Source of the DNA: Nostoc sp. NMS2
Lineage (GTDB): Bacteria; Cyanobacteriota; Cyanobacteriia; Cyanobacteriales; Nostocaceae
DNA: 48,000 bases
NCBI RefSeq assembly: GCF_017115105.1
Contig: NZ_JABXKH010000156.1
Span: 1 to 48,000 of the forward strand
Direction of reading: 5' to 3'
Both the position numbers and the translations under genes were made by a program. The notes under the pieces were generated by a model. It was not told where the DNA came from, made no database searches, and was given only the letters and a program-made list of their open reading frames with translations. Positions 11,458-16,851 of this stretch are shown here, piece after piece (positions within the stretch are counted from its first letter, which is position 1; every line of letters begins with the position of its first letter).

Positions 11458-14400
11458 TTATTTCACTCCACTATTTACCTGTGCTTTCTCAATGCATGTT
11501 TGCAAGCGATCGGCTAGAGTCAGAACATGGGGTTGAGTCATCATTGTTACATGGTCCCCAGGGACAATATGAACCTCTACTGTTTTGCTAGAAAACTCGT
11601 TCCAGCCTAAAGCCGGGTCTTGTAGTATCTCTGAATATTCAAACAGGCTAGAAACATCATCAGAATTTACCTCACTTGCCCGAAAACAGGTAATTTGACT
11701 CGGATAGACATGCTGTGGCAGATAAAAATCAAAAGCTTCGCCTGTGGCTTTACTAACCTTTAAAAAACCTCGTAGTTGTTTTGTTCCTACCTGGGGTGGT
11801 AATAGGTTAGCTACTTTCAACCTCTCTGCAAGGTAATTCAATTTTGCTTCTGCATCTAGAGTCAGCAAAGTTTCATAAGAAAACTCGACTTTCTTTTCAA
11901 AGAAGCGCTCCATTAACCGAATCAAGTAGATTAGATCCTTAGCATCATCCCCGTCAATAGTTACAGGCTTATTGAGATTAGGAACTATGGCCATTACATC
12001 TAAAATGGCAAGTAAGGCTACTTCATGCCCTTGCTGTTGCAATTGTTGAGCCATCTCAAAAGCCACGTAACCTCCGAAAGAATGACCGCCTAGAAGGTAC
12101 GGTCCTTGTGGCTGAATTGTCTGTATAGCTGCGATATAGCAACTAGCCATCTCTTCAATGCGGGTATGGGGTTCAAGTTCTCCATCTAAACCCCGTGGTT
12201 GCAAACCGTAGAATGGTTGCTCTGAACCTAAAGAACGAGCAAGATGATAAAATTCAATCACATCCATCGCGCCCCCAGGCACACAGAAGAAAGGTGTCTT
12301 AGAACCGTCTGGCTGAATTGCTACCAAAGGCGACCAAGACTGGGAATCTTGATGCTGGCTGATAGTACTGGCCATTTGTTCGATTGTGGGGTTTTGTAAA
12401 AGTGTCGCTAAGGGGAGATTTTTTTCTAACTGCTGCTGAATTTGAGCCATTAGGTGTACAGCTAACAGAGAATGACCACCGAGTTCAAAGAAGTTGTCTT
12501 GGACGCCGATAGGGTGAAGATTAAGAACTCCTTCCCAAATTGATGTTAGTTGTAGTTCTAGAGAACCACGAGGCGGGACAAATTTAGTCTTTCTAATAAA
12601 GTTGGATTTATCTGGTGCGGGTAGGGCGCGGCGGTCTACCTTACCGTTGGGTGTTAATGGTAGAGACTCCAGCATCACAAAAGCTGAGGGCATCATATAC
12701 TCAGGTAGTCTTTCTTTGAGAAAGTGACGCAGTTGCACTTCTAAATCTGGAGTTTCCACTTGCCTATGTGGGACTACATAACCCACTAAACGCTTATCTC
12801 CTGACTGTTCCCAAAGGATGACCACGCACTCTTGCACTTTGGGGTGTTGTGCTAGCACGGCTTCAATTTCTAAAAGTTCAATGCGGAATCCGCGAATCTT
12901 CACCTGATAGTCAATCCGACCCAGAAATTCAATGTTACCGTCATTGAGGTAGCGGGCTTTGTCGCCAGTTTTGTAAAGGCGAGTTCCCGGTAGCCCAAAG
13001 GGATTAGGAATAAAGACTTTAGTTGTGAGTTCGGGATTGTTGAGATAGCCACGACCAACTCCTGTCCCTCCAACATATAATTCACCTGCTACCCCAATCG
13101 GTACGGGTTGTAGTTGGGGGTTTAGGATATACAGTTGTGTATTGGCTACAGCCTTACCAATGGGCGTATTGAGAGTTTCTATCCCTAATGGGTGGTATAT
13201 AGGGTAATGCGTGACATCATCAGAACATTCTGTTGGGCCATAGGCATTTAACATGGGGATGGTGGGGTAGTATTCTAACCAGCGATCGCACAATTTGGGC
13301 GGCAATGCTTCACCTGTTAAAATCAACCAGCGTAACTTAGATAAATGAGGACGCTTTTGGTTATGTAAGTCTATTTCCTGAAGCATCATCTGCAACAGCG
13401 AAGGCACAACCTCTAGAATAGAAATTTCGTGTTGCTGAATCTGCTCTAACAATTTTGCCGGGTTACGCACAACCTCATTGTTGAAAATGTGTACCCGTCC
13501 ACCTACAAGTAATCCTACCAGCAATTGCCAAACCGAGATATCGAAACTTTGGGGCGCAGTCTGAGCGATCGCATCACTTTCTGTAAGCTTGAGATCCAAC
13601 ACCTTAGCATATAAATGATTCAGCATCCCGCGATGGGTAATCATCACCCCTTTGGGCATCCCCGTAGAACCAGAAGTGTAGATGACATAAGCCAAGTTTT
13701 CACCTGTCACCACAGTATCAGGATTCTGCTGACTATGTTGAGAAATAACTGGCCAGTCTGCATCTAAGTAAACTACATCTGCTTTATGCTCAGGCAATTT
13801 AGTTTTTATGCTCTTGTGAGTCAACAGCACTGACACCTGCGAATTTGCAAGAATGTAGGCTAAACGTTCTTGGGGATAGGCAGGATCTAATGGCACATAA
13901 ACCCCACCTGCTTTGAGAATCGCCAGAAATGCCACCAGCATCTCCAAAGACCGTTCAATATAAACACCTACTAATACTTCTGTTTTTACCCCCAAAGACT
14001 GTAAATAATGAGCTAGTTGATTAACTTGAGCATTCAACTGAGCATAAGTGACCGTATGTTCTGCAAAAACAACGGCTACTTGCTCAGGTGTCTTTTGAGC
14101 TTGGACTGTAAAAAGTTGGGTAAATATTTGCTCTGGAAATGCTGTTTGAGTTTGATTAAAATCAACTAAAATCTTCTGTTTTTCCAGTTTTGCAAGCAAA
14201 CTAACCTGCAAGATAGATTGGTGACTATCCTCTAACAATGCATCTAACACCTGAAGAAAATGTTGAATTGATAAGTCAAGTGATGCCTGAACAAAAGTAT
14301 CACAGTGAAAATCAAAATCAATAATCAGATTATTAGATAAACTAACATCACGTATTTGAACATTGAGACTTTCATTAGCATGTCCAGTATGAATCCAGTC

Positions 14401-16851: not shown

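Follow-up and report, generated by a model that had tools for sequence, protein, structure and literature searches.

Nostoc sp. NMS2 (contig NZ_JABXKH010000156.1) carries, within the 48,000-nucleotide stretch analysed here (positions 1 to 48,000 of the forward strand; hereafter the window), a cluster of nonribosomal peptide synthetase (NRPS) and polyketide synthase (PKS) genes accompanied by homologues of sbnA and sbnB and by exporter genes (Table 1). [quoted passage not shown] The subject of this analysis is the second of the two, C*, in which the second, catalytic histidine of the HHxxxDG motif is replaced by glutamine (Gln590).

Table 1. Features of the terminal synthetase and of the surrounding gene cluster, in window coordinates.
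Feature	Coordinates	Strand	Basis or remark
Terminal NRPS gene, 1797 aa, C1-C*-A-T-TE	11458..16851	(-)	ORF list, translation, Pfam
C1, ordinary elongation C domain, post-E type, HHLLLDGWS intact	15469..16851	(-)	Pfam, motif
C*, full-length C-fold domain, separate starter-like clade	14182..15468	(-)	Residues 462-890
Motif C3 of C*, HQIIGDG (canonical HHxxxDG)	15067..15087	(-)	Starts at residue 589
Gln590 codon CAA, at the second (catalytic) His position	15082..15084	(-)	
His735-Asn736-Arg737, clade-specific 'PFHNR' (canonical 'P[IV]AGR')	14641..14649	(-)	
Gln751, where canonical C domains have the Asn of the C5 motif (FVNT)	14599..14601	(-)	
A domain, code DIWEITADDK	12640..14112	(-)	Residues 914-1404 including the C-terminal subdomain (Pfam AMP-binding)
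T (carrier) domain	12364..12549	(-)	Pfam PP-binding, residues 1435-1496
TE domain	11521..12294	(-)	Pfam Thioesterase, residues 1520-1777
MFS exporter	10143..11456	(-)	Directly after the NRPS; likewise after the related proteins P0036 and P0181
sbnA homologue (2,3-diaminopropionate synthesis)	8737..9753	(-)	NCBIfam TIGR03945, 424.5 bits, cut-off 349.95
sbnB homologue (2,3-diaminopropionate synthesis)	7648..8673	(-)	NCBIfam TIGR03944, 404.1 bits, cut-off 326.9
devBCA-type ABC exporter genes	4297..7468	(-)	NCBIfam
Upstream NRPS, C-A-T-E, D-configured donor for C1	17163..21884	(-)	Pfam; E motif HHLAVDGVS
Loading PKS/NRPS, FAAL-ACP-KS-AT-ACP-aminotransferase-C-A-T, beta-amino fatty acid start	22066..32391	(-)	Pfam

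An earlier note on this DNA had read the domain order as C1-C*-A-T-TE, described C* as otherwise full length (approximately 430 residues) and assigned it an HQxxxDG motif, all of which is borne out. Pfam and the translation agree on the order, with two Condensation (PF00668) stretches separated, by the Pfam boundaries, by a linker of approximately 18 residues, and the HHLLLDG motif of C1 begins at residue 145. The AlphaFold2 model of residues 462-890 displays a complete C-domain fold (pLDDT 90.3, pTM 0.90), the top Foldseek matches of which are all C domains (TM 0.80-0.86), and C* is a member of the NRPS condensation-domain superfamily by its PF00668 match and its fold. In the HMMER alignment with the C domain of TycC (2jgp), 'nihqiigdg' lies opposite 'dmhhsisdg', with HQ squarely on HH; hence, the motif is not shifted. 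Within the superfamily, C* differs from canonical elongation domains (LCL/DCL) in that the second histidine is gone, its predecessor in the protein is C1 instead of a T or E domain, and its clade is a separate one, whereas the cyclization (Cy) type is contradicted by HQIIGD in place of DxxxxD and by the weak matches to the Cy domains of the bacillamide synthetase and EpoB (33-44 bits). The possibility that C* arose by internal duplication of C1 was ruled out, given that the two share only 25% identity, and so was relocation of the missing histidine to position 803, where histidine is often present in clade members with an intact motif as well. The domain is poor in G+C (0.346 overall and 0.287 at third codon positions, GC3, compared to 0.42-0.44 and 0.35-0.40 in the remainder of the NRPS; positions 14050-15850 of the window examined). 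The G+C content of C* is below that of its own synthetase in every locus examined, and a foreign insertion, considered on account of the low G+C, was dropped because at least part of this bias is a property of the clade.

To delineate the clade, 1.84 billion representative proteins were searched exhaustively with HMMER and the hits re-scored by domain, which yielded approximately 80 domains; the C domains contained in the same 150 proteins served as the ordinary comparison set. Proteins of the relatives are denoted here by P-numbers and their loci by L-numbers (P0037 is encoded at L008, P0036 at L009 and P0043 at L010). Clade members score 230-640 bits and are 31-66% identical to C*, compared to approximately 130-150 bits and 24-25% identity for generic C domains, and in a neighbour-joining tree they are monophyletic with respect to the domains of the window itself (C_A, C_B, C1 and E). 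The clade is present in several phyla. The tandem arrangement is its typical context: 64 of the 80 members are found directly behind a C domain and in front of A-T, 15 occupy the N-terminus and a single one is located behind a T domain. The N-terminal members include relatives (54-58% identity) from Thiomargarita and other Thiotrichaceae-like metagenome-assembled genomes, in which C* opens a C*-A-T-C-A-T-TE synthetase adjoining a phosphopantetheinyl transferase gene, and the member at L013, in front of which an acyl ligase and an acyl carrier protein (ACP) stand in the classical lipoinitiation layout. The C1-like domains of the other proteins stand behind E domains. In P0036 (L009, 1549-8280), two clade members occur in succession, C1-C*(HHIVADAWS)-C*(HQIISDCWS)-A-T-TE, with the same type of A-domain code as in the window and, again, an MFS gene next to the synthetase. 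The P0043 locus (L010, 1916-18274) carries a C-C*(HQ)-A-T module with a lysine-like code, flanked by a stand-alone A-T protein on one side and by a B12/radical-SAM gene on the other; a free carrier protein of 73 aa and two more modules come next, so that two possible donors are available for the two C domains. Separate homologue searches, with C* alone and with the clade profile, gave no more than about 20 short fragments from metagenomes, without informative names; a cluster look-up of ten relatives gave no product names, and tblastn against plasmids recovered only generic C domains of approximately 25% identity.

Clade members share a set of motifs that sets them apart from ordinary C domains. 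Core motif C1 reads 'NLTxNQLLIW' instead of 'LSxAQxRLW', and core motif C2 reads 'SSDALRT' instead of 'RHExLRT'. At the PFHNR positions, the clade has His in 86%, Asn in 92% and Arg in 100% of its members, where ordinary C domains have Ala (78%) and Gly (61%), and the C5 position, occupied by Asn in 93% of the latter, is Gln or Glu in the clade. The active site thus appears to be remodelled clade-wide, with the PFHNR histidine and the Gln/Glu at the C5 Asn position as the predicted hallmarks. The second histidine of HHxxxDG is kept by 60 of 80 clade members, compared to 516 of 518 C domains of the ordinary type (Fisher p=6.5e-17), and the 20 members that lack it have Gln in 16 cases, Asn in two, Ser in one and Asp in one. 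The neighbours of the window domain in the tree are P0037, the N-terminal domains of L001-L003 (HQIISDGLS/HQIISDGFS), P0043, P0163 and P0078; other Gln lineages are scattered across the tree. The earlier note had foreseen neither the wide recurrence of the C-C*-A-T layout nor the repeated occurrence of Gln within the clade. Gln751 accompanies Gln590 more often than expected (15 of 20 cases, compared to 18 of 61); because the association is partial, a strict covariation from His590/Glu751 to Gln590/Gln751 was dropped.

The Gln590 substitution is stable. The protein is identical or near-identical in Nostoc sp. NMS1 and approximately 96% identical in Nostoc sp. DSM 114159 and DSM 114167, where C* itself is 95.6% identical and retains HQ despite 19 differing positions in the domain; Gln is also found in relatives at 54-66% identity. 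Comparison of the window with the DSM 114167 locus (L007) gave dN/dS values of 0.186 for C1, 0.135 for C* (on small counts, 20 non-synonymous and 37 synonymous changes), 0.214 for A, 0.056 for T and 0.316 for TE. At a greater distance, C* has diverged no faster than C1 (both are 66% identical to P0037, compared to 76% for A and 69% for TE). C* is under purifying selection, as tight as that on the catalytic domains, and is not decaying. The N-terminal Gln-type domains of L001-L003 show dN/dS of 0.19-0.28, similar to the adjoining ordinary C2, and 68 clade-conserved positions are kept at 86% in the Gln-type members, compared to 90% in the His-type ones. Because of the bias towards Gln, the retention of the clade positions and these dN/dS values, the His-to-Gln substitution is best read as specific, old, and tolerated or favoured, rather than as a sign of erosion. 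These results bear directly on the two outcomes that the earlier note had named as fatal to its proposal. A sequencing error at 15082-15084 is contradicted by the conservation of Gln in independent Nostoc genomes and in the more distant relatives, and a standard LCL domain with HH present elsewhere by the alignment of HQ on HH and by the separate clade. The reading of C* as an artefact or ordinary domain, be it a misread codon 590, a pseudo-domain in decay or an LCL domain with a shifted motif, can draw on the fact that CAA is one base away from the His codons (CAT/CAC); in view of the intact reading frame, the confident structural model, the purifying selection and the approximately 25% identity to ordinary C domains, we consider its probability negligible.

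A side observation concerns the loci with N-terminal C*: C*, T, C2 and TE are close to one another among L001 (9656-16675), L002 (9131-16105) and L003 (9980-16969), with dN of 0.06-0.13, and both A domains have been replaced (dN 0.32-0.38, with differing specificity codes). The pattern suggests that the A domains were exchanged naturally, with putative breakpoints at the domain borders.

The clade also has a pronounced preference for the A domains that follow it. Specificity codes were read against GrsA as a ruler, which gives the correct code DAWTIAAICK. The three A domains of the window have the codes DVGELASIDK, DSWDVGAIGK and DIWEITADDK, the last of which follows C*, and acidic pocket residues are present in all three. 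Across the clade, codes for bifunctional residues, namely, ornithine/diaminobutyrate (DVGExxSIDK), lysine-like (DxEDIGTVxK), serine (DVWHISLxDK) and the window's own DIWExTADDK, follow C* in 50 of 66 cases; where the preceding domain is an ordinary C domain of these proteins, the count is 71 of 396 (Fisher p=4e-20). Thus, the C* clade travels with A domains for residues bearing a second nucleophile. Serine-type clade members were considered as possible icosalide synthetases and rejected, given that their A codes disagree with Leu-Ser-Ser-Leu. Five DIWExTADDK loci have enough flanking sequence, and in four of these (the window, L008, the P0126 contig and L012) the synthetase is accompanied by genes for an sbnA/sbnB-type pair, a pyridoxal phosphate-dependent (PALP) enzyme and an ornithine cyclodeaminase homologue; the fifth, L011, where C*-A-T is N-terminal and stands alone, has no such genes. 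Because of this co-occurrence, we infer that DIWExTADDK specifies 2,3-diaminopropionate (Dap); no published match for the code DIWE[LIV]TADDK was found in a literature search. C* and the Dap-type A domain co-occur behind C domains of differing type, and they do so in elongation modules as well as in termination modules. A diamino acid, which the earlier note had raised in proposing a specialised catalyst, is accordingly strongly supported by the sbnA and sbnB homologues, the A code and the clade-wide coupling to bifunctional residues.

Apart from the window, a PKS-aminotransferase start combined with C-C*-A(Dap) and sbnAB-like genes was observed in two unrelated metagenomic contigs, L012 (10001-22204) and L008 (1-7734), and in L012 the C-C* tandem follows directly upon the aminotransferase domain. 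L008 further contains a Methyltransf_23 gene and a second PALP enzyme (13545-14405, 17515-18630) adjoining the sbnA/sbnB-like genes, which could represent a route to an N-methyl-Dap residue, of the type of beta-methylaminoalanine (BMAA). In cyanobacteria, sbnA and sbnB reportedly occur in a limited subset only and constitute the sole detected route to 2,3-diaminopropionate, the presumed precursor of BMAA (PMC9414260), and the cluster described here is one of the few cyanobacterial contexts for SbnA/SbnB-made Dap. From the acidic pockets of the three A domains and the FAAL-PKS-aminotransferase start, we predict a polycationic beta-amino-lipotripeptide as the product, for which no matching known compound was identified.

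Among solved structures, C* matches by sequence the C domain of TycC (95 bits), the starter C domain of RzmA (80 bits) and PvdL (67 bits), and by fold TycC, the RzmA starter C domain, CDA-C1, Txo2 and LgrA, with TM scores of 0.80-0.86 at approximately 20% identity. The starter C domains (RzmA Cs and CDA-C1) resemble C* in being its best structural matches (TM 0.86) and in the N-terminal position shared by some of the clade members, but are only about 21% identical to it, at 50-80 bits. Since the LCL domain of TycC scores as high as, or higher than, the starter domains, C* probably does not belong to the classical starter clade by sequence. The best curated NCBIfam matches of C* are the N-terminal C domain of MxcG (NF038078, 128.5 bits) and the first C domain of the PvdL type (NF004282, 136.6 bits), both far below the equivalog cut-offs. 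Furthermore, the C*-A-T portion of five other clade members aligns to MxcG from residue ~5, and P0047 does so over the whole C-A-T-R length, also below the equivalog cut-offs. The MxcG/PvdL-type domains are thus the closest curated sequence relatives of C*; unlike C*, they are not embedded behind another C domain. For the first C domains of both MxcG and PvdL, the donors are acyl or aryl groups and, as far as known, HH is retained; in the case of MxcG, the alpha-amine of lysine and its side-chain amine are both acylated with the same donor.

In terms of layout, the nearest described counterpart is the icosalide synthetase, the sole one reported in which an elongation C domain is followed by an embedded initiating C domain. 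In module 3 of IcoA, as in the window, the extra C domain is located directly behind the elongation C domain and before A-T, its relatives occur at NRPS N-termini, as is the case for the C* clade, and a second acylation event takes place inside a single module: a 3-hydroxyacyl thioester is used by the embedded domain for the N-acylation of Ser-S-PCP (PMC6553374, PMC10510592). The two systems differ in the acceptor, which in IcoA is serine, with the 3-hydroxyl of the new fatty acid as the second nucleophile, whereas in the window it would be Dap, with two amines. The tandem C layout as such hence has a published precedent.

Taken together, these observations lead us to favour, tentatively, the reading that C* is a functional, starter-like member of its clade that handles the second amine of Dap, giving rise to a branch or to a second acylation. 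Under this scheme, SbnA and SbnB would make Dap, which the terminal A domain, by its predicted specificity, would load, and the single Dap-S-T would then present two acceptor sites, one to C1 and the other to C*. C1 would move the beta-amino-lipopeptidyl chain from the upstream C-A-T-E synthetase onto one of the amines, and C* would most likely N-acylate the other, with an acyl thioester delivered in trans, presumably from acyl-ACP or acyl-CoA, much as the embedded domain of the icosalide synthetase acts on serine and the MxcG domain on both amines of lysine. The TE would finally release a branched or doubly acylated lipopeptide. Gln590 would be a selected, lineage-stable replacement of histidine in a position where the residue may need only to form a hydrogen bond and position the amine, and we infer that the Gln form still catalyses the transfer. 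A more far-reaching proposal, which we regard as unlikely, holds that the whole clade is an undescribed C subtype for second-site acylation of bifunctional residues, that its Gln members form amide bonds without a general-base histidine, and that the product in the window is a branched, doubly N-acylated Dap lipopeptide; His735 of PFHNR and the Gln/Glu at the C5 Asn position might in this case assist the Gln-type members.

Several observations weigh against a catalytic C*. The icosalide domain keeps its catalytic histidine, and its H164A variant gave only trace, uncatalysed product (PMC6553374), so that Gln at this position may abolish transfer. Within the window's own subclade, the first histidine has been lost as well in close relatives (SQ in P0163, DQ in P0078); in P0036, the Gln copy lies beside the A domain and the HH copy upstream, as though the former needs the latter alongside; and two DIWELTA-type A domains are found behind an ordinary C domain without C*, which shows that C* is not obligatory for Dap. 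Moreover, neither a free carrier protein nor an extra acyl ligase for a second donor is present in the window. With the exception of the DIWELTA-type A domains, all these points are also expected if C* is non-catalytic and selectively maintained, having descended from a starter C domain that became fused with A(Dap)-T behind C1 and now serving to support the A domain structurally or to hold and shield the side-chain amine, with C1 making the sole bond. The loss of the second histidine in 20 of 64 tandem members, compared to two of 15 N-terminal ones, and the co-divergence of C* and A(Dap) as a unit behind differing upstream C types point in the same direction. On the other hand, dN/dS is as low as that of the catalytic domains, the clade-conserved positions are not generally relaxed, and the replacement is nearly always Gln, unlike the spread anticipated from neutral decay of a CAY codon. 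In L001-L003, Gln-type C* is kept at the N-terminus, with nothing upstream to scaffold, and the A domain was swapped between L001 and L002 while C* stayed, so that C* is not bound to a particular A domain. Of the inactive spacer suggested by the earlier note, the decaying version is contradicted by purifying selection, and the version with a selected structural role is what survives here, as a possible, if somewhat doubtful, explanation.

Two further explanations are less well supported. C* might perform another reaction on Dap, such as routing the chain through the beta-amine as an isopeptide, attaching a second upstream chain to yield a forked product or closing a ring through the side-chain amine. 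The coupling of the clade to residues with side-chain nucleophiles, the clade-wide remodelling of the active site, including the new conserved histidine of PFHNR, and the homology to MxcG, with its acylation of both lysine amines by one donor, would all suit such a function, but the data favour no particular alternative reaction, and the ornithine/lysine- and serine-type codes in the clade make one common cyclization chemistry unlikely, so that we rate this explanation as improbable. Still less credible is a role in docking a tailoring enzyme that acts in trans, which the earlier note had proposed by analogy with the X and interface domains. Like an interface domain, C* is a non-canonical member of the C superfamily that comes in addition to the regular module set, and its catalytic motif is altered. 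Interface domains are reportedly part of modules in beta-hydroxyaspartate siderophore synthetases. antiSMASH 8, citing Reitz et al. 2019, recognises them as module parts and flags C domains without catalytic residues as inactive. However, by their description, interface domains are tied to Asp modules and a stand-alone beta-hydroxylase, neither of which is present in the window: the A code after C* is not that for Asp, Asp/Asn-type A domains follow only three of 66 clade members, the non-NRPS genes of the cluster are sbnA, sbnB and the exporters, and among the window ORFs of at least 150 aa there is no tailoring enzyme, be it a hydroxylase, an Fe/2OG beta-hydroxylase, a P450 or another type. 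In glycopeptide synthetases, the X domain, which recruits the P450 Oxy enzymes encoded in the cluster, is located after the last T domain and before the TE, whereas C* precedes the A domain, and no conserved partner gene recurs across loci L008-L014.

Tandem C domains are commonly dismissed as oddities or annotation noise, and in this case the extra domain turns out to be a member of a recurrent clade. In the searchable literature, we found no description of the broad C* clade, of its tie to diamino acids and serine or of the recurrent His-to-Gln substitution under purifying selection; searches for HQxxxDG found nothing, and those for internal starter C domains associated with diamino acids found nothing relevant. 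If the clade indeed carries out second acylations, C-C*-A-T modules would mark branch points that structure prediction misses in many orphan clusters, and if the Gln form is active, it would bear on the long-standing question of the role of the second histidine in HHxxxDG.

The remaining observations concern the surroundings of the synthetase genes. Two ORFs of the window have no Pfam match: one of 282 aa at 148-996 and one of 261 aa at 33167-33952, the latter just upstream of the cluster and beside a class IV aminotransferase gene (34634-35431). The sbnA, sbnB and devBCA genes (window positions 4000-10000) have a low GC3 of 0.20-0.27.

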